A program made the position numbers and the translations under genes. Source: a virus (Duplodnaviria; Caudoviricetes). Taken from it: DNA of 39,706 bases. Below, in pieces: positions 576 to 15,912 of the stretch (positions are counted from its first letter, which is position 1; every line of letters begins with the position of its first letter). The notes beneath the pieces are model-generated. The model had not been told where the DNA came from and ran no database searches. It saw nothing but the letters and a program-made list of their open reading frames with translations. The stretch is from positions 1 through 39,706 of IMG/VR virus record IMGVR_UViG_3300033109_000107; one strand, written 5' to 3'.

Positions 576-1697
576 ATGCCTACAAACAAACTCACAGACG
601 CCCGCTGCAAGCAGATCAAAGAGCCAGGCAAGCATTTCGACGGCGGGGGAATGTACCTATTCTGCGCCCCTACCGGCTCTAAGCTCTGGCGACTGGCGTA
701 CAGGGTGAATGGCAAGGCGCAAACAGCGACCTTCGGCCCATACCCCGAAGTCTCTCTAGCTGAAGCCAGATCGAAGCGTGACGCGTTCAAACGAGACTTG
801 CGTAATGGCACATTGCCCACAAAGCGGACGCGCTCTATAGCCCTATCTGACGCGATTACGCAGTATTGGGATGGGCGCATGGATTTATCCGAGTCCTACC
901 GATCCAACGCTAAACGCGGGCTGGAGATGCACCTGACCAAGCTTCTCGATACGCAGGTATCGGACATCGCGCGGGAAATGCTGCTAGACGAACTTCGCCG
1001 CATGGACGCGAAGAAGCTCTATGTCTACGTCCGTAAGGTTAGGCGATGGGCAGGGCAGGTATTCGACTGGTGCCAAGATCATGGCTACATGCAAACCAAT
1101 CCTGCGAGAGACATACGCCCGCAGACATTCTCCACTGCTCCGGTAGAACACTTCGCCGCGCTTGAGTTATCAGAGGTTCCCGAGTTCATGGCAAGGCTGA
1201 GCATGGAATCTGACCTGCAATCCGTTCTTGCGTGTAAGCTCTTGGCGCTTACTTGGGTTCGGACGAATGAGCTTCGGATGATGGAGTGGTCGGAGATTGA
1301 CGGGGATTTGTGGCGGATTCCTGCGGGGAAGATGAAGCGCAGGAGGGATCACGTTGTTCCTCTATCACGGCAGTCAGTCGATATCCTAGAGCAACTAAAA
1401 CAGCGTGCAGGGGGTTGTTATGTGTTCTCGCACCCGTATCGGTCTGATCGTCCAATGTCAGAGAACTCCATACTTTATTTGCTCTACAGGATAGGCTACA
1501 AAGGCCGGCTCACTGGTCACGGATTCCGCACCATCGGATCAACATGGGCCAATGAAAACGGATTCAACGCTGATGCTATCGAGAGGCAACTAGCGCACGT
1601 TCCTGGTGATGTTAGGTCAGTGTATAACCGGGCTGAGTATCTGGATGAAAGAAGGCGCATGCTAGAGGCGTGGGCTGACTGGTTGATGCCTGAGTGA
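576..1697 (+). CDS. int: Phage tyrosine integrase (P4/IntA-like with N-terminal arm-binding domain)
   Basis: N-terminal DGGGMYL...GSKLWRLAYR...TFGPYPEVSLAEAR arm-binding motif; catalytic residues in VRTNELR, GKMK, HGFR, LAH, VYNR. Confidence 0.95.
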   Translation: MPTNKLTDARCKQIKEPGKHFDGGGMYLFCAPTGSKLWRLAYRVNGKAQTATFGPYPEVSLAEARSKRDAFKRDLRNGTLPTKRTRSIALSDAITQYWDGRMDLSESYRSNAKRGLEMHLTKLLDTQVSDIAREMLLDELRRMDAKKLYVYVRKVRRWAGQVFDWCQDHGYMQTNPARDIRPQTFSTAPVEHFAALELSEVPEFMARLSMESDLQSVLACKLLALTWVRTNELRMMEWSEIDGDLWRIPAGKMKRRRDHVVPLSRQSVDILEQLKQRAGGCYVFSHPYRSDRPMSENSILYLLYRIGYKGRLTGHGFRTIGSTWANENGFNADAIERQLAHVPGDVRSVYNRAEYLDERRRMLEAWADWLMPE

Positions 1698-1730
1698 TTT
1701 TGTCAGCGTGTCGCATAATTCAAGTTAGCC
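1691..1730 (+). other. Putative attI-like primary recombination site heading the left cassette array
   Basis: Ends in core GTTAGCC (1724-1730); 33/40 identical to the reverse complement of 14601-14640; not an attC hairpin. Confidence 0.7.
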
Positions 1731-1731
1731 G

Positions 1732-1917
1732 TCACAACTTGGCCTCATTGCTGAACCAGTTGCTTATGCGAACTGCCATCTGGTACGCCCCTTCACTTGC
1801 CGCGCCACCAACCGAGATGTACTGGTTGACGATGGCCCAAAATCTTAAAGCGTCTTCCTCGCTTTCGAGTACCAGCGCTATCGGATTAAACGCTCCTTCC
1901 TGCTGCATCATCTTCAT
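1732..1917 (-). CDS. Hypothetical protein (cassette L1, second gene)
   Basis: ORF MKMMQQEGAFNP...; ATGA-coupled to the upstream ORF; stop lies next to the GTTAGCC core. Confidence 0.6.
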   Translation of the reverse strand: MKMMQQEGAFNPIALVLESEEDALRFWAIVNQYISVGGAASEGAYQMAVRISNWFSNEAKL

Positions 1918-2168
1918 TCGTTGCATCCTCGCGTAAATGCCTTCAGCCGCCTCAGATACACGTCGCGCCCTTCGCCGTCTTTCCACAGCGGATCGTCCAT
2001 CTGCTTGTCCAGGTGCGGGCACTCTTCCTGTGCGCACGGAACCAGTGCTCCCAGGTCATCGTCAAACAGCGCCGCAAATATCCCGCGCCCGCATCCCTTG
2101 CCGTAGCAGTTGGCGGTTATCTCCGGCTCTTGCAACCGCAGCACTACGCCGAAAATCTTGGTGCCCAT
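1914..2168 (-). CDS. Hypothetical Cys-containing protein (cassette L1, first gene)
   Basis: 84 aa ORF with GAAAGG RBS just inside the attC inverse core. Confidence 0.65.
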   Translation of the reverse strand: MGTKIFGVVLRLQEPEITANCYGKGCGRGIFAALFDDDLGALVPCAQEECPHLDKQMDDPLWKDGEGRDVYLRRLKAFTRGCNE

Positions 2169-2183
2169 ATCAACCTTTCTGCC

Positions 2184-2243
2184 GGCTAACCCGGCATTGG
2201 TTCGGACCTGCCTTCGGCAGGCCGCACAACTTGGTCGCTAGAC
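2184..2243 (+). other. attC-like site L1 (core degenerate, GCTAGAC)
   Basis: GGCTAAC-CCGGC-ATTGGTTC...CTGCC TTC GGCAG...GCACAAC-TTGGTC-GCTAGAC; the inverse core is complementary to GTTAGCC at 1724. Confidence 0.75.
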
Positions 2244-2399
2244 ATTAATCCCCGCCTCCCTAAGCGTACTTTCTTTCCACCCAACACACCTTAGACTCAA
2301 CTGGACATCAGGCGGGGGAATCTTTCCGGCTTTCCTCCAGGCTAGGAATGTCTTGCGTGAGACTCCGAGCCACTTGCGCAGGTCTGCTTGTTTAATCAT
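2238..2399 (-). CDS. Excisionase / AlpA-like recombination directionality factor (53 aa, not in ORF track)
   Basis: Manual translation MIKQADLRKWLGVSRKTFLAWRKAGKIPPPDVQLSLRCVGWKESTLREAGINV; AlpA/Xis winged-HTH pattern; AAGGA RBS; near int. Confidence 0.8.
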   Translation of the reverse strand: MIKQADLRKWLGVSRKTFLAWRKAGKIPPPDVQLSLRCVGWKESTLREAGINV

Positions 2400-2430
2400 G
2401 TACGATCCTTGATGTTATGGTGTTGTTTGC

Positions 2431-2745
2431 TCATGCCGCGCCAACCCGCGGCATCGACTTCCTCAGTCCGGCCAGCGCCTGAGAGAATCCTATGCGCCGC
2501 TTCCATTCCCTTCCATCGACAACAACGCGGAAGCAGTCGATTCGGTCAGTCTTGAAAAACTCCATGACGTGAGTTTCGTGGCCGAAGTCGAATGACTCGA
2601 CCACCAAGCGACGGCGTAGGTCGGGAAGCGGCGCTGGATAGTCCGGCGCTGATTCTTCCATGCGAGCAACGTCACGAGACCGGCGAATCGCCGCCAGTTC
2701 TTCACGACGCTGCGCTGCTTTTTTGGTCAGTCTGTACATGATCAA
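2431..2745 (-). CDS. Hypothetical protein
   Basis: 104 aa ORF co-oriented with the early left operon. Confidence 0.6.
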   Translation of the reverse strand: MIMYRLTKKAAQRREELAAIRRSRDVARMEESAPDYPAPLPDLRRRLVVESFDFGHETHVMEFFKTDRIDCFRVVVDGREWKRRIGFSQALAGLRKSMPRVGAA

Positions 2746-2760
2746 CCTTGCACGGTAGGT

Positions 2761-3051
2761 CTACTTAACGTTCGGCGTCAGCTTCACGAAGCCGCGAGCG
2801 ACCATGTAGGGGTCGCGCTCGGGGTGATATCGCCGTGCGGCGACATTCTTCGCAGGCTTCAAGCTCAGCATCCGGCGCCAGTATTTCCCGCAGGCCAGCG
2901 CCCGCTCTTGATTCTCCGCCGCGACGTAAACCGAACTGCCGCACTGCTTGCCCTTCTTGTCCACCGGGAAGACCTCCCATTGAAGTCTCTCCGGGTTCAT
3001 TCCCCACGTTCTCGGGTCGTCTCTCACAGGTCTTTCTCCATCACTCTGCAC
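2761..3051 (-). CDS. Hypothetical protein (cassette L2; start may be GTG at 3027)
   Basis: ORF ends TPNVK*, reading across core GTTCGGC (2770-2776). Confidence 0.6.
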   Translation of the reverse strand: MQSDGERPVRDDPRTWGMNPERLQWEVFPVDKKGKQCGSSVYVAAENQERALACGKYWRRMLSLKPAKNVAARRYHPERDPYMVARGFVKLTPNVK

Positions 3052-3242
3052 GGCCAGTGGTGGCCGCAGTTTGCGCAGGCTGCCGTGTCCAGCCGGGTTG
3101 TTTTCAGCGCGGCCGGCGAGCCGTTGGCCATCAGCCAGTGGTAGGCGTGTGTCCCACAGCGGGGGCAGCGCCGCTCCACCTTGGCCGGTAGCCGCCGAAC
3201 CCGTCGCTCCAGGGGGACGCCCTCCATGCCGCTTCGCGTCAT
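3024..3242 (-). CDS. Small zinc-ribbon-like protein (cassette L2)
   Basis: CPRC and CANC pairs; likely start lies within attC L2. Confidence 0.5.
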   Translation of the reverse strand: MTRSGMEGVPLERRVRRLPAKVERRCPRCGTHAYHWLMANGSPAALKTTRLDTAACANCGHHWPCRVMEKDL

Positions 3243-3272
3243 TCCGGTCGCCCCTGAGCTAGTGCGTTGGGC
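3194..3272 (+). other. attC-like site L2
   Basis: GCCGAAC-CCGTC-GCTC(C)AGG...CCTGAGC-TAGTGC-GTTGGGC; extra C in L'' box. Confidence 0.88.
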
Positions 3273-3273
3273 C

Positions 3274-3588
3274 TCACCATCCGCGCGCCACGCACAGCGC
3301 ATCGTTCACCTGTTGTTCCAGGCTCTTGTCGGCCGCATCAGGCAGGCTCACGTCGTCGCCGTCCTGGTTGCTCAGTTGCACCCACGCCGCCCCTCGCTCC
3401 ATGCACAGGTTTAATTGCCACCCTTCCGGCAGGTGTTGGCATACCTTGTTTGCCAGCGCCAGTACGAACATTTGGCCGTCGTCGGTTGTGGGTGCTGCCG
3501 GAGCCAGTCCAAGGCGTTCCAGGTTGCGAATCACGGCGTTCTCGCCAGCTCGTATCTGTGCGCTCCGAATCTCGTCGTGCAAACTCAT
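3274..3588 (-). CDS. Hypothetical protein (cassette L3)
   Basis: MSLHDEIRSAQ..., GAGGA RBS; fills the space between two attC sites. Confidence 0.7.
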   Translation of the reverse strand: MSLHDEIRSAQIRAGENAVIRNLERLGLAPAAPTTDDGQMFVLALANKVCQHLPEGWQLNLCMERGAAWVQLSNQDGDDVSLPDAADKSLEQQVNDALCVARGW

Positions 3589-3613
3589 GATCCTGTCCTC
3601 TCCGGGCGCTGAG

Positions 3614-3681
3614 GCCCAACACTTCAATCGAGGCGACCTGTCGCATAAAGCCGCGCCAGTCGCTCACCTCCAGCGTTATGC
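3614..3681 (+). other. attC-like site L3
   Basis: GCCCAAC...GTTATGC imperfect inverted repeat; GAGGCCCAAC complements GTTGGGCCTC at 3266. Confidence 0.85.
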
Positions 3682-3682
3682 C

Positions 3683-3889
3683 TCATGCTGCGCGCCAGTG
3701 AATGTTCAGGCCGAGCAACGTGGCGCGAAGCTGCTTGTATTGCCGTTGCCAGTAGAACAGTCGCGGGTGTAGCGAGAGTGAGACCTTCCACCCTTCTCGG
3801 TGCTCCCACCGTCCGCTTTCAAATCGAAACAGCGTTACCCGGCTGTCTCCTGTCGCTCTTGCGCCAATCCAGAACATCATTCGCATCAT
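3683..3889 (-). CDS. Hypothetical Trp/Arg-rich protein (cassette L4)
   Basis: 68 aa ORF with GGAG RBS between attC L3 and L4. Confidence 0.6.
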   Translation of the reverse strand: MMRMMFWIGARATGDSRVTLFRFESGRWEHREGWKVSLSLHPRLFYWQRQYKQLRATLLGLNIHWRAA

Positions 3890-4551
3890 CGTTCTCCGTT
3901 GTTGTCGCCGGCATAACCCGGCAGTCCAGCGGACGCCGTGCCGGCTCCGCTGACTTTTGCGTTGGGGGTCTTACACTTTGCTGCCAGCTCTACGAGCCAT
4001 TGCGCGAGCGCCGGCGGCGTGTGCTCGCGTTCCGACTTCGTCACCTCCGGGCGCCACCCGGCCATGCCCTTCACCAAGCGCCGACCATCTGGCAACGTCC
4101 TGTGCTGCGCTATTACGTGTGTCGCTCCGCCCAGGTGCATGGGTATCGGCGGCACGTCCGCCGGCTCGGCGCCAACGATGTAGAGAAGCGTCAACTTCTC
4201 CGCTCGGTGCCCAAACCAATGCTGAGAAATTCCGAGCGTCCAACCTCCAAATGCATCGCGCTCGCCTGGGCGTGGAAGGGCCTGCGCCGGCCAAAGAGTC
4301 GAGCCTTCCGGGTGCTCCAGCACCCCGCCGAATTCGCGCACCAGCGCCACCGCCAGCCTGGCCAGGTTGCGCTCGTCAGCGCGCACCTTTGCAAATCTTC
4401 GCAGTCGCCCCCATCCACGGCATGGCGGGTGCGCTACCACAGGCCAAGGGCCGTCGTAGGTGCGCGCATCACGCTCCATGTCATACACGTCCACGTCAGG
4501 CAGCGCCTTGTAGTTGCTGTCTGCGCGGGCAAACAAAACCGCCACGGTCAT
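3886..4551 (-). CDS. DNA cytosine-5 methyltransferase-like protein (cassette L5)
   Basis: Start MTVAVLF; VVAHPPC (motif IV-like) and GVLEHP (motif VI-like); C-terminus reads through attC L4. Confidence 0.65.
   Translation of the reverse strand: MTVAVLFARADSNYKALPDVDVYDMERDARTYDGPWPVVAHPPCRGWGRLRRFAKVRADERNLARLAVALVREFGGVLEHPEGSTLWPAQALPRPGERDAFGGWTLGISQHWFGHRAEKLTLLYIVGAEPADVPPIPMHLGGATHVIAQHRTLPDGRRLVKGMAGWRPEVTKSEREHTPPALAQWLVELAAKCKTPNAKVSGAGTASAGLPGYAGDNNGER
3911..3967 (+). other. attC-like site L4 (57 bp)
   Basis: GCATAAC-CCGGC-AGTC(C)AGC-GGA(C)GCCG TGC CGGCTCC-GCTGACT-TTTGC-GTTGGGG: canonical R''/L''/L'/R' layout with two extrahelical bases. Confidence 0.92.
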
Positions 4552-4561
4552 GAGCCGAGAC

Positions 4562-4632
4562 CCCCAACACTGCGTTGCAGGGGACGCTCCGCCGAAAAGC
4601 CGGCGGCGCGCCCCTGAACTTGGACGTTGGGC
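4562..4632 (+). other. attC-like site L5
   Basis: CCCCAAC-ACTGC-GTTGCAGG...CCTGAAC-TTGGAC-GTTGGGC. Confidence 0.88.
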
Positions 4633-4636
4633 CTCA

Positions 4637-4855
4637 TCAGCATCCACACGTAGGCGGTTGTTCCTTCCCGGCCTTGCGGAACACCTCATCCCGGAAGTCT
4701 CGGCACAGCTTGTCCAGGGTCAGCGAGTCCAGGTCGCTCAGTGGGTAGCACGGGAGTTCCTGCATCCCGTCCTGCTTCAGCCCGGGCTTTCCAACCGCCC
4801 GCACAAAGTTCGGCGTCTGGAACGGTTGCAGTTCAACTTGTAGCGTTGCTTTCAT
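4637..4855 (-). CDS. Hypothetical protein (cassette L6)
   Basis: 72 aa ORF with AAGGA RBS between attC L5 and L6. Confidence 0.7.
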   Translation of the reverse strand: MKATLQVELQPFQTPNFVRAVGKPGLKQDGMQELPCYPLSDLDSLTLDKLCRDFRDEVFRKAGKEQPPTCGC

Positions 4856-4885
4856 GTCCTTGTCCTTTCTTCGTAGTCACCAGAG

Positions 4886-4972
4886 GCCCAACCCTACGGT
4901 CGACATCGCTCCCTTCGGTCGCTGGACCTCGCGCGATAAGGCCGCGCGAGGCCGGTCACCTACACGTTCGGC
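4886..4972 (+). other. attC-like site L6
   Basis: GCCCAAC...CCTCGCGCG ATAAGGC CGCGCGAGG...GTTCGGC. Confidence 0.82.
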
Positions 4973-5123
4973 GTCACTTCCCAATCGGTGCAGTCGTCAA
5001 TGTCGATGCGTAGGTCGTAACCGTTCTCGCGCTCAAAATGTTTCGTCAGCCATACGTCTCCCATTCGGCTGCAACCGATGCAGCGGTAACGCTTGCCGTC
5101 CTTGTAGGTGCAAAACAGCTTTC
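4966..5123 (-). repeat. 158 bp exact inverted copy of 14450-14607
   Basis: Base-by-base comparison; identity stops at the GTT/AAC core. Confidence 0.92.
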
Positions 5124-5159
5124 TTCAGCATTTCCGATTATCACTTTTTCAGCCATCAT
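4967..5159 (-). pseudogene. Chimeric cassette remnant: N-terminus MMAEKVIIGNAE fused out of frame to the 3' half of the 14332-14610 gene
   Basis: RBS and ATG at 5159; junction at 5123; the cassette's two cores are non-complementary. Confidence 0.65.
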
Positions 5160-5181
5160 CACTCCGTAGTTACGTTTTGCC

Positions 5182-5251
5182 TGCCAACCCGTCGCTCAAG
5201 CGGGACGCGCCGCGATAAAGCTGCGTCGCGCCCCTTAGCTCTACGTTAGGG
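5182..5251 (+). other. attC-like site L7
   Basis: TGCCAAC-CCGTC-GCTCAAGC-GGGACGCG...CGCGCCCCTTAGC-TCTAC-GTTAGGG. Confidence 0.88.
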
Positions 5252-5255
5252 AACT

Positions 5256-5666
5256 TCATTTCACGATGCCGTATTTCCGCGTAGCCCCTGCCACTGCCGG
5301 ATTAACGACCCTCGATTTCCATCCGTCGCGGGTCTTTTGTTGGAACCGCTCGGCGAATGTTTCCTCGCGCAGCAACTTGCCGCCCATGAGACGATCCAGC
5401 CGCTGCACACCCTTACGCACGTTCCCGCTTCCGTTCCCTGCATTGCAAAGCGTGCGCAGCCGCAGGCGCAAATCGGGCGGAAACGAATCAAACTCCCTCG
5501 CTACCAGTTCGACCGCGCTTTCGTGGCTCAGTTGGGTAAAAATCGACTGCGCCACCTTGTCGGTGTTCTTCGAGCTAAAGAAGCCCGCTCCGTTCTCTCG
5601 CGGTACATACGCCTTCCACTGCGATAGCGGCACGTTAAACGCCAGCATCTCTAATGCTATGCTCAT
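5256..5666 (-). CDS. Hypothetical protein (cassette L8)
   Basis: MSIALEMLAF..., GGAG RBS; 136 aa between attC L7 and L8. Confidence 0.7.
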   Translation of the reverse strand: MSIALEMLAFNVPLSQWKAYVPRENGAGFFSSKNTDKVAQSIFTQLSHESAVELVAREFDSFPPDLRLRLRTLCNAGNGSGNVRKGVQRLDRLMGGKLLREETFAERFQQKTRDGWKSRVVNPAVAGATRKYGIVK

Positions 5667-5684
5667 TCTTGTTCTCCGCCAGTT

Positions 5685-5771
5685 CCCTAACCTTACGTTG
5701 CAGGGGACGCCGATTAAGCGTCGTTGGTCTTGGCGGGCGCTTCTAAGGCGCCCCTGAACTCCACGTTGGGC
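5685..5771 (+). other. attC-like site L8
   Basis: CCCTAAC-CTTAC-GTTGCAGG...CCTGAAC-TCCAC-GTTGGGC; AGTTCCCTAAC complements GTTAGGGAACT at 5245. Confidence 0.88.
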
Positions 5772-6016
5772 ATTTTGGTCTTTTTCACCGGCACAGCCGC
5801 TGCCAGTGCGTTGCACATCGCCTCACCAGCAGCGAACAGCGCCTGTAGTTCAGGCGTCCTCTCGCCTGGCTGGACGCACTCCTCCCGCAGCCGCCCGTCG
5901 TTGGTGGCGATGTAAACCCATGTCGGAGCATTGCTCCAGCCGGGGCCGTTACAGCGTTCCGGTACTACGGCGACAACCCGCTCGCCGTAGGCCAGTTTGA
6001 TGGTTCGTGCCTTCAT
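5714..6016 (-). CDS. Hypothetical protein (cassette L9)
   Basis: GGAGGGAG RBS; C-terminus PNVEFRG... is encoded by attC L8. Confidence 0.7.
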   Translation of the reverse strand: MKARTIKLAYGERVVAVVPERCNGPGWSNAPTWVYIATNDGRLREECVQPGERTPELQALFAAGEAMCNALAAAVPVKKTKMPNVEFRGALEAPAKTNDA

Positions 6017-6029
6017 TCTCCCTCCTGAT

Positions 6030-6088
6030 GCCCAACAGGGCCATGCACCGGACCCGCTGAAGCGGGCCGGTGATGTTCGACGTTAGGC
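6030..6088 (+). other. attC-like site L9 (59 bp)
   Basis: GCCCAAC-AGGGC-CATGCACC-GGACCCGCT GA AGCGGGCC-GGTGATG-TTCGAC-GTTAGGC. Confidence 0.88.
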
Positions 6089-6120
6089 CCCAATGCCGAA
6101 GCACCGGGGCCGCCCCATGT

Positions 6121-6333
6121 TCAGAACCGCATCGCCTCGGCAATGTCACGAATCCGCATCCCAAGCAGCGGCGCAAGCGTCTTCTTGCTCTCTTCCAGAC
6201 GCTCAATCTCTTGGCGCAGCGTGGAAATCTTGGCGTCGATGTTCTCTTCCACGGTCGGGTTGTGGTCGCGCCCGCCAATCAGTTGCCCTGCTGCCCTGTT
6301 TTCGCATTTCGCCATCTGTGCTTGTTCGTACAT
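6121..6333 (-). CDS. Hypothetical coiled-coil protein (cassette L10)
   Basis: MYEQAQMAK..., AGGAG RBS. Confidence 0.7.
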   Translation of the reverse strand: MYEQAQMAKCENRAAGQLIGGRDHNPTVEENIDAKISTLRQEIERLEESKKTLAPLLGMRIRDIAEAMRF

Positions 6334-6366
6334 TTCGATTTCTCCTGCCCGTCTCAAGGGTGCCGG

Positions 6367-6447
6367 GCCTAACCCGTCGATCAACACGGACGCCCTTCGG
6401 CGTCGCTGCGCGCCGCCTACGTGCGCCGGTTATCTAGGTCGTTATCA
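6367..6447 (+). other. attC-like site L10 (last in left array)
   Basis: GCCTAAC-CCGTC-GATCAACACGGACGCC...TGCGCCGGTTATC-TAGGTC-GTTATCA. Confidence 0.85.
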
Positions 6448-6455
6448 TCCTCAAA

Positions 6456-6920
6456 CTAGAACGGAATGTCGTCCTCGAAGTCGTTGAAGCCGCCGCCCGA
6501 AGACGGTGCGGCCGGCTTCGACGGAGCCGGCCGGCTGCCGCCGCCGCTGCTCTCGCGCGGTCCGGCATCGCCCATGCCCTCACGCCGGCCCAGCATCTGC
6601 ATCTCGTTGGCTTCGATCTCGGTGGTGTAGCGCTCCTGGCCTTCCTTGTCGGTCCACTTGCGCGTACGGATGCGGCCTTCGAGGTAAACCTGCGAGCCCT
6701 TCTTGAGGTACTGGCCGGCAATCTCGGCCAGCTTGCGGTAGAAGACCACGCGATGCCACTCGGTGATTTCCTTCTTCTCGCCCGACTGCTTGTCTTTCCA
6801 GCTCTCGGTGGTCGCCACGCGGATGTTGCACACCGCGTCGCCGTTGGGCATGTAGCGTGTCTCCGGGTCCGCACCGAGGTTGCCGATGAGGATTACTTTG
6901 TTGACGCTTGCCATGCTCAT
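6456..6920 (-). CDS. ssb: Single-stranded DNA-binding protein
   Basis: [21 protein letters not shown]... OB fold and acidic DDIPF tail. Confidence 0.97.
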
Positions 6921-13005: not shown

Positions 13006-13403
13006 AGGGGCCATCGCTTCCAGCCCTCCAAGCAAAAGCAGACAAGATCATGTCCATTTACATCCGCATGAAGTACGCAGATGCAGATGGCTTGGTTAAG
13101 TGCGTTTCCTGTGGCCGAACGTTTCACTGGAAGGATGTTGATTGCGGGCACTTTGTTCCCAAGTCTCGCGGGGCGGCTATCCGGTACGTTGAAGAAAATG
13201 TGCATCCCGAGTGTAGAGGTTGTAACTCGTTCAATGATGGGCACTTGATCGGTTATACCCTGTACATGATCGATATGTACGGAAGGGAAAAGATTGACGA
13301 ACTCAAGCGAGAAGCAAGGAAGGTAATGAAGCCCTCAGAGAAGCGGGCGGTGGTCGAAGAAGCTATTGCTTACTACACGCAAGCGTTGAAAGCACTTGCA
13401 TGA
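13002..13403 (+). CDS. ninG: NinG/Rap-like recombination endonuclease
   Basis: YIRMKYAD...CVSCG...DCGHF...RYVEENVHPECRGCN. Confidence 0.85.
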   Translation: MKGPSLPALQAKADKIMSIYIRMKYADADGLVKCVSCGRTFHWKDVDCGHFVPKSRGAAIRYVEENVHPECRGCNSFNDGHLIGYTLYMIDMYGREKIDELKREARKVMKPSEKRAVVEEAIAYYTQALKALA

Positions 13404-13612
13404 TCTGCGGCAACAAAAACAAGCCTACCCTAGACGGCTATTGGGCGCAGAACGGCACAGAAGTAGTGATGGATGTCGAGCTAGGCCCGATTGTGGTTAG
13501 GAAGGCTGTATGGATAGAGGATCACATGTCACGTGAATGCAGGTTCGATCAGAAGACGGAAGAGATGTGCGGAGGATGTGAGAGGTTTAACTGCGAGGTA
13601 ACCGGCGCATGA
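13400..13612 (+). CDS. Hypothetical protein
   Basis: Coupled ORF; last codons (FNCEVTGA) are encoded by attC R2. Confidence 0.6.
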   Translation: MICGNKNKPTLDGYWAQNGTEVVMDVELGPIVVRKAVWIEDHMSRECRFDQKTEEMCGGCERFNCEVTGA

Positions 13613-13663
13613 CGGCGAGCGCAGCGATGCCGTCAGGCGTCCGTGTTGACCGTGTAGTTATGC
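13585..13663 (-). other. attC-like site R2
   Basis: - strand GCATAAC-TACAC-GGTCAACACGGACGCC...TGCGCCGGTTACC-TCGCA-GTTAAAC; very similar to attC L10. Confidence 0.85.
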
Positions 13664-14256
13664 GCCTGGCTGCGCTGTTCGTGCAGCCGGACGGATGCTA
13701 TGCGGGACTGCCCGGCGTTGATGCGTGGCCGGAGCATCGAGACGCGAGGCGCTACGCGGGACCGCTGCCGGTTGTTGCGCACCCGCCCTGCCAATTGTGG
13801 GGCGCGATGGCGAACGTGAACTATGCCCGATGGGGCGGCGAGCACAACCGGCCTGGGAATGATGGTGGTTGCTTCTCTTCGGCGCTTGAAAGCGTGCGGC
13901 GGTTTGGTGGGGTGCTGGAGCACCCAGCAAAGACGAAGGCATGGGCCGCGCACGGACTGGCGCAACCGACCGGAATTGGCTGGCAGCGAACCATTGATGG
14001 TGGGTGGGTGTGCGAGGTTTGGCAGAGCGCCTACGGCCACCGGGCGAACAAGGCGACATGGCTTTACTACCACGGCACGAACCCGCCATTTGAACTGCGG
14101 TGGGCGAGGCCGGAAGGGACGCACCAGATTGGGTTTCACGACCAACGAGGGAAGGCGGCAAACAAGCCGACCCTCGGCAAGCGAGAGGCGAACGCTACGC
14201 CTTTGGAATTTCGGGACGAACTGCTGCGCCTGGCGATGATGGCGCATAACGACTGA
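13609..14256 (+). CDS. DNA cytosine-5 methyltransferase-like protein (cassette R2; alternative start 13660)
   Basis: LAALF, VVAHPPC, GVLEHP, YGHRANKATWLY; paralogue of 3886-4551. Confidence 0.65.
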   Translation: MTASAAMPSGVRVDRVVMRLAALFVQPDGCYAGLPGVDAWPEHRDARRYAGPLPVVAHPPCQLWGAMANVNYARWGGEHNRPGNDGGCFSSALESVRRFGGVLEHPAKTKAWAAHGLAQPTGIGWQRTIDGGWVCEVWQSAYGHRANKATWLYYHGTNPPFELRWARPEGTHQIGFHDQRGKAANKPTLGKREANATPLEFRDELLRLAMMAHND

Positions 14257-14307
14257 GTTGTGGGGCGGGCCGCTTGCGGCACGTCCCACACGAACGACGG
14301 GTTCGGC
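14244..14307 (-). other. attC-like site R1
   Basis: - strand GCCGAAC-CCGTC-GTTCGTGT-GGGACG...GCCGC AA GCGGC...CCCACAAC-TCAGTC-GTTATGC. Confidence 0.82.
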
Positions 14308-14331
14308 GGCACTGGAAACGGAGGACAAGCG

Positions 14332-14610
14332 GTGAAACACATTGACGACTGGCTGGATGACCCGACAACCGGCCCGGCTGACGTAAAGGAATGGCTTGAG
14401 CATTTCCGCAGGCCGGCGATTGACAAGGACTACAAGTGGCTGGCAGCGCGAAAGCTGTTTTGCACCTACAAGGACGGCAAGCGTTACCGCTGCATCGGTT
14501 GCAGCCGAATGGGAGACGTATGGCTGACGAAACATTTTGAGCGCGAGAACGGTTACGACCTACGCATCGACATTGACGACTGCACCGATTGGGAAGTGAC
14601 GCCGAACTAG
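14332..14610 (+). CDS. Hypothetical protein (cassette R1)
   Basis: GGAGG RBS and GTG start; ends TPN* at the core. Confidence 0.75.
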   Translation: MKHIDDWLDDPTTGPADVKEWLEHFRRPAIDKDYKWLAARKLFCTYKDGKRYRCIGCSRMGDVWLTKHFERENGYDLRIDIDDCTDWEVTPN

Positions 14611-14640
14611 ATTTATACGACACGCCGACAAAAACACTCA
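14601..14640 (-). other. Putative attI-like site heading the right cassette array
   Basis: - strand tgagtgtttttgtcggcgtgtcgtataaatctaGTTCGGC, matching 1691-1730. Confidence 0.7.
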
Positions 14641-15721: not shown

Positions 15722-15792
15722 GCGGCCTACTCGGAGGAGAGTAACAGCCTTCCAAGCTGGCAGATAGGGTTCGACTCCCTAGGGTCGCTCCA
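15722..15792 (+). tRNA. tRNA-Gly(TCC), atypical D arm
   Basis: Acceptor GCGGCCT/GGGTCGC, anticodon loop CT-TCC-AA, TAGGG-TTCGACT-CCCTA T arm, TCCA end. Confidence 0.75.
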
Positions 15793-15800
15793 TGAAGTTT

Positions 15801-15880
15801 GGTGCGCGGGACTGCTTGGCGTGGTCGCTTGCCTGTCACGCAAGAGAATCAGCGGGGTTCGATTCCCCGGCGCACTGCCA
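15801..15880 (+). tRNA. tRNA-Asp(GTC)
   Basis: Acceptor GGTGCGC/GCGCACT, CTTGC-CT-GTC-AC-GCAAG anticodon arm, CGGGG-TTCGATT-CCCCG T arm, GCCA end. Confidence 0.85.
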
Positions 15881-15912
15881 CCCTCCACACGCGCATGGGT
15901 AACACCGTGCCC

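Follow-up and report, generated by a model that had tools for sequence, protein, structure and literature searches.

Integron attachment sites and the closest described systems

Integrons are viewed as platforms belonging to bacteria, and CALINs (at least two clustered attC sites with no intI nearby) are often taken as leftovers that are unable to gain cassettes for want of attI and intI. The attI site recombines as double-stranded DNA with the bottom strand of attC, and replication resolves the product (PMC8352920; PMC12901181; here and below, in the sections of these papers that we used). Partial copies of attI remain active, across integron classes too (PMC12901181). In phages, CALINs and active attC sites have been described by Qi et al. 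(2023; PMC9892861, likewise in the sections used), and in one prophage, Shewanella M16-3, a host-type attI heads an integron and also a CALIN.

The stretch of DNA studied here, referred to below as the window, is the whole IMG/VR provirus record IMGVR_UViG_3300033109_000107 (39,706 nt). It carries two copies, A and B, of a short site preceding attC cassettes, and a third row of cassettes headed by a different attI-like site, C (Table 1). The attI1 of class 1 integrons is like A and B in that it does not fold, has a left box, a 5-nt spacer and GTTRRRY, joins cassettes at G↓TT (the arrow marks the crossover) and has its array downstream (PMC12901181). Unlike attI1, however, A and B have no adjacent intI or Pc, some 36 bp are conserved instead of 65, and the left arm is TGTCG(C/T)ATAA in place of CCCTAAA; the window also differs from the attI1 integrons of that account in having three heads in one genome and antisense cassette genes (PMC12901181). 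The Delta-attI of class 1 and 2 arrays resemble A and B as partial attI detached from intI, which are still substrates of IntI. They differ in that they replace the attC of a cassette within an array and keep mostly 8–12 nt upstream of the G, whereas A and B keep about 33 nt and start a new array among ordinary phage genes (PMC12901181). M16-3 shares with the window the presence of attC clusters in a phage and of one attI type twice per phage genome. However, its IntI is host-like (95% to S. oneidensis) and its attI is of host type, while in the window neither A nor B has an integron integrase with it and the site type is that of a phage IntI clade (PMC9892861). Systematically antisense arrays are a feature of the window that is absent from the description of M16-3 in the part of PMC9892861 used here. 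Searches of the open-access literature brought up no publication describing an IntI clade specific to phages, the attI of such a clade or orphan copies of that attI. The new point is an integrase-less phage with two orphan copies of the phage-clade attI plus a host-type head.

Table 1. Coordinates of the sites, arrays and neighboring genes in the window, and of detached attI sites in two other contigs.
Feature	Positions	Strand	Details
P4-type phage integrase gene (int)	576-1697	+	Arm-DNA-bind_3, Phage_int_M, Phage_integrase; not an IntI
Site A	1691-1726	+	left arm TGTCGCATAA 1709-1718; spacer 5 nt, 1719-1723; crossover G↓TT at 1724
Array of site A, one cassette	1725-2243	+	attC 2184-2243; antisense ORFs 1732-2037 and 1914-2168
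Phage DNA outside cassettes, separating two arrays	2238-2745	-	AlpA/excisionase-like gene 2238-2399; gene 2431-2745 without assigned function; no attC
Site C, attI-like head, putatively of host chromosomal type	2752-2772	+	GGTCTAC, 5 nt, G↓TT at 2770
Array of site C, nine cassettes	2771-6446	+	antisense genes; attC at 3194, 3614, 3911, 4562, 4886, 5182, 5685, 6030 and 6367
Repeat (158 nt, no mismatch) of the beginning of the first cassette at site B	4966-5123	+	by sequence identity
Two-cassette array headed by site B, nin region	13585-14606	-	attC 14244-14307 and 13585-13663; antisense genes 14260-14610 and 13609-14256 (phrog_12600)
Site B	14605-14640	-	left arm 14622-14613; spacer 14612-14608; crossover G↓TT at 14607
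attI, contig L446 (IMGVR_UViG_3300001199_000021), which has a second, detached one	3842 and 7216
Detached attI, contig L459	3694

A provirus with three cassette arrays

The record is 54% complete (CheckV) and has no match to the IntI alignment anywhere in it; given this completeness, an intI may lie in another part of the phage. Its early region is lambdoid, with the P4-type int, an AlpA/xis-like gene, ssb, Cro, NinB and NinG, and SU10-type portal and capsid genes are also encoded. The SSB of the phage shares 95% identity with those of Rhodocyclaceae, and therefore the host is likely a betaproteobacterium of this family. The ssb gene itself (6456–6920) is high in GC and nearly identical to a Rhodocyclaceae host ssb, which suggests a recent capture, and the end of the long array falls just beyond its stop codon. 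Site A is missing from five relatives of the phage int, in three of which the xis-like gene directly abuts int, and it is therefore not a fixed part of the int locus. For the Q-like gene adjoining site B no relatives were found. Downstream of this gene (15722–15900) there is a tRNA-like match (15722–15789, Rfam) with a second tRNA-looking stretch just after it.

The attC sites were located with a covariance model built from 15 sites; the window contributed 12 of these, and its own hits are thus by construction. As a check, the model gave 36 hits in 30 host integron loci, all of them on the strand reading away from intI, and none in 65 unrelated viral loci taken as control. The 12 attC sites of the window form three arrays, with A and B upstream of theirs, that is, at the end where an attI belongs, as had been claimed from the sequence in an earlier note. 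The same note had the motif at the head of both cassette arrays; A and B do head arrays, but there are three of these, and the nine-cassette row is headed by site C. Between the cassette of site A and site C lie about 530 nt of non-cassette phage DNA. The array of A runs as far as G↓CTAGAC (a single deviation from the consensus) at the end of the xis-like gene, and that of B stops within the 3′ end of a nin-region gene (13400–13612). The segment 2745–2776 had also been considered as a truncated attC, a candidate dropped after comparison with host attI sites (site C).

In 11 of the 12 cassettes the first 8–11 bases are complementary to the inverse core of the same cassette. The one that departs from this is the chimeric cassette at 4966–5245, where the inverse core is not complementary to the start and the gene looks broken. 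The 158 nt repeated from the first cassette of site B begin exactly at the crossover G, but adjoin an attC rather than site B. Two cassette genes of different arrays (3886–4551 and 13609–14256) are paralogs, both belonging to phrog_12600, of unknown function. This family has 173 viral relatives, the closest of which lie within antisense attC arrays, and 61 of the best 80 are without an attC hit. A ribosome binding site and start codon on the antisense strand were found at 8/12 attC sites of the window and 39/49 of phage integrons, against 6/31 of host integrons.

With 12 attC sites in three arrays and no intI nearby the window has the constitution of CALINs, the array of site A having a single attC. 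It is not a complete integron, as there is no intI beside an attI and the neighbor of A is the P4-type integrase. Nor is there a Pc driving the cassettes in the sense of the array: we found no promoter- or terminator-like hits at or near A and B, and the genes are antisense.

The two copies of the site

Positions 1691–1730 (+) and the reverse complement of 14601–14640 are identical at 33/40 positions, and at 31/36 up to the GTT. These values, already given in the earlier note, were reproduced, and they stand out in the window: the next-best match is 22/36 for the 36-mer of site A and 21/36 for that of site B, and about 1e-4 such pairs would be expected by chance. The similarity ends at the left edge of the motif, and on the other side extends 5 nt beyond the 40 (45 nt, 84%) because the first cassettes at both sites start alike. 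Contigs from the probable source run (Logan) span both sites with no differences, and therefore the pair is not an assembly artefact. Site A overlaps with its first 7 nt the last codon and stop of int, and site B provides the stop codon for the antisense gene of its first cassette. A general rule that the site supplies a stop codon was rejected, being clear only for B and for contig L113 (see below).

Two further observations of the earlier note were also borne out. Neither copy is a hairpin, since both fold no better than shuffled versions on either strand (z from -0.27 to +0.82), and the attC covariance model gives no match at A or B. The bases from the G onward are complementary to the inverse core of the first cassette, over 8 bp at both sites. 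Judged from sequence, the identification of the motif as an attI-type site has good support. It is likely that A and B were used in the past; selection on them, as suggested in the earlier note, and any present activity are at the level of inference.

Anatomy and recurrence of the motif

In 6/6 copies of the motif CG(C/T)ATAA is followed by 5 nt and GTT, with the left box inverted to the core. The core has the form of an attI, i.e., GTTRRRY with the crossover after the G and the following bases coming from the first cassette, and conservation stops at the GTT. Exact hits to this short core numbered 45 (6 viral, 18 in genomes and 21 in metagenomes). Only four of them (L006, L016, L113 and L132) precede attC, and the other 41 have none nearby and are mostly inside unrelated genes, so the short core alone is not specific. 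The long form with the conserved 5′ part was found outside the window in L016, L113 and L132, with 29–33/36 identities to A or B: 3/3 precede attC, at the heads of arrays in phage-like DNA, in agreement with the claim that the motif is phage-borne. The five long copies share 27/36 positions, including the entire left arm and AGTT, and their first cassettes all differ, which therefore indicates several separate insertions at this family of sites.

The 39-kb contig of L016, which was binned in an Ignavibacteriaceae MAG, has ORFs that by eye look like portal, terminase and capsid genes; the intI of that MAG has a different attI and is on another contig. L113 adjoins a ninG-like gene (read by eye) and L132 a NinB gene. 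The array of L113 closes (~1153–1160) with an almost exact inverted copy of the left arm of the site; before any insertion the site may have been symmetric, or else a decayed cassette could begin here. Two further phage arrays, in L053 (5944) and L037 (5913), also have attI-like heads, one of which resembles the tail of class 1 attI1 as given in PMC12901181.

Searches with other forms of the motif returned little. A strict upstream pattern had no matches in the viral contigs; the upstream half had 65, none running into a full left arm plus GTT, and these were used as negative controls. Among INPHARED phages and PLSDB plasmids, BLAST with site B gave chance-level matches only. With up to three mismatches the pattern matched 23 times in 401 Burkholderiales genomes, versus 21 for the reversed control, with none beside an intI among those listed, and the long pattern had no match in 401 class-level genomes.

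Phage-encoded integrases and their attI

The viral relatives of IntI analyzed were the best 80 of 303 and, with a clade-specific query, the best 80 of 279, from contigs that are partly shared. The first tree comprised 63 viral loci, after omission of 15 duplicates or short loci and two broken frames, and in 28 of the 63 we found a TGTCG..AA..GTT site ending 114–174 nt upstream of the intI match. The form of these phage attI is GTGTCG-NN-GAATT(T/C)AAG↓TT, often with GTTA-NN-CGACA before it, and mostly attC arrays follow. In a tree of 226 IntIs, which left out the loci of three unpublished genomes, a phage IntI clade of 62 viral loci plus one host locus had a support of 0.98 (0.97 in an earlier tree). 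The lone host locus (L428/L439) has PHROG-matching antisense cassettes and an adjacent phage integrase, and is prophage-like. None of the 27 usable best class-wide hits belonged to the clade, with a host sampling of one class only, and chromosomal members may exist in other groups. We found no cultured phage encoding an IntI of the clade (best match 54.6%); the cultured Ralstonia phage PQ43W has a cassette-type gene and no attI-like hit.

Site A is identical at 18/19 positions to the attI cores of two of these loci, L320 (IMGVR_UViG_3300014205_000350) and L325, and site B at 15/19 to the nearest phage attI core. Scored with a profile of 24 distinct phage cores, A (24.4 bits) and B (19.2 bits) rank first and second among ~79,000 positions of the window, followed by 11.2, a result that is partly circular as the cores were picked by a pattern inspired by A and B, the independent part being their fixed place between intI and attC. 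True phage cores score 15–33 when left out one at a time. No shuffled window out of 100 reached the score of A and 3/100 reached that of B; site B alone is modest. There are also differences: the upstream 15 nt of A and B are unlike the GTTA-N2-CGACA arm of most phage attI, A and B carry TAA where most phage attI carry GAA, and their exact long form was not found beside any intI. Within the first 20–30 codons of phage-clade intI genes (L260–L338) we observed repeated TGTCG boxes, which are possibly extra sites of integrase binding or autoregulation.

Host-type sites

IntI is encoded in 161 of the 401 sampled Burkholderiales genomes (a tally that includes two unpublished genomes), and we examined 130 of these intI loci, 124 of them with at least 200 nt upstream. 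The common end of the host attI is a GTCTAC-like box, 5 nt and GTT. With a host profile (89 distinct cores) site C ranks first in the window with 16.9 bits, a score reached by 9/200 shuffles, which gives moderate support to C being of host type. Sites A and B scored 12.4 and 11.3, a level reached by 64/200 shuffles, and by these profiles they are not of the Burkholderiales chromosomal attI type. Host-type heads are present also on the integrase-less arrays L032, L038 and L042, and therefore phages recruit several attI types.

Alternative explanations

The earlier note took A and B for attI sites used by a host chromosomal IntI. The frequency of IntI in Burkholderiales, the Rhodocyclaceae-like ssb of the phage, the finding of the same attC family in host integrons and the host-type heads of site C and of L032, L038 and L042 all speak for this enzyme, as does the use of truncated attI2 sites by IntI1 (PMC12901181). 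The sites themselves do not: the match to attI beside betaproteobacterial chromosomal intI that the note had expected appeared at just 1/130 host intI loci, that one prophage-like, none of the 95 host attI cores reaches 19 bits with the phage profile, and with the host profile about a third of the shuffles (64/200) do as well as A and B. We consider it unlikely that the host enzyme is the one concerned. The same degree of doubt applies to A and B being inert relics, i.e., blocks of attI plus cassettes spread among phages by short-homology recombination that are no longer substrates or under selection. This would fit with a record without intI and source contigs without joints, with the lack of an intI relic upstream of either site, with the NinB/NinG-type recombination genes of the phage and with the shortness of the arrays at A and B (one and two cassettes). 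It fits poorly with five copies that are alike at 27/36 positions and yet precede different first cassettes, requiring several separate insertions, or with cassette ends that at A and B are still complementary over 8 bp.

The motif could also be a dif-like XerC/XerD site, or a promoter, terminator or operator, that merely abuts cassettes. Like dif/pdif it has a left arm ending in (C/T)ATAA, a 6-nt centre and then TT, and the arm matches two Burkholderiales dif-like sites at 7–8/11. In L023 (~2990–3021, a Desulfosporosinus MAG) the same arm recurs in a perfect inverted repeat, with 6 nt at its centre, just upstream of a gene resembling, by appearance, a tyrosine recombinase. The right arm, however, is part of the cassette and so varies from copy to copy across all six, with only 4–6/11 matches to dif; there is no conserved XerD arm and the exchange boundary is at G↓TT with attC cassettes. 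The motif is not palindromic and neither site has a promoter- or terminator-like hit, so that we regard this explanation as very improbable.

Proposed origin and use of A and B

We think it probable that A and B are integrase-less copies of the attI type of phage IntIs, and that they would have served in the past as points of cassette entry for such an integrase. A phage-type integrase, lost from the lineage or provided by a co-resident phage, would have inserted attC cassettes at G↓TT. By established integron chemistry, double-stranded A or B would recombine with the folded bottom strand of the incoming attC, and replication would resolve the junction, leaving the incoming cassette in the first place of the row. 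Several of the phage integrons have upstream a GTTA(T/G)GCGACA box of which the left arm TGTCG(C/T)ATAA is the precise inverse, so this arm would probably make an ideal integrase half-site. Early transcripts, leftward and rightward, would traverse the arrays toward the sites, and no Pc promoter would be needed because the cassette genes are antisense.

Sites of this kind are also detached in other contigs. L446 and L459, which encode IntI, each bear a further attI that is detached and has an attC array to itself, and in L446 it is a near-duplicate of ~60 bp located between xis-like and int-like genes, as in the window. L006 (IMGVR_UViG_3300042455_000945) has an orphan attI (~2890–3021) heading five attC sites and no intI in its 44%-complete record, but keeps ~120 nt alignable to the 5′ region of phage intI (score 78, vs 45 for A and 37 for B). 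Both routes to putative orphan sites, duplication and integrase loss, are seen among these contigs. A and B, without a relic of intI, look like copied modules. In the contigs of the source run, which drop rare variants, no excision or insertion joints were found.

Implications for phages and their hosts

Three attI-like heads are thus present in a phage record without an integron integrase, and the type of two of them is associated with integrases that phages encode. A wider picture, which we offer tentatively, is that temperate phages of betaproteobacteria may have an integron network of their own, in which IntIs of the phage clade would act in trans on satellite attI of integrase-less phages and shuffle antisense early genes, with phage-type (A, B) and host-type (C) entries in one genome. 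The three sites in a single genome provide a clean test case for attI specificity with phage IntI, host IntI and IntI1. If active, they would let phages become mosaic by a site-specific route and would allow cassettes to pass between phages and host integrons.
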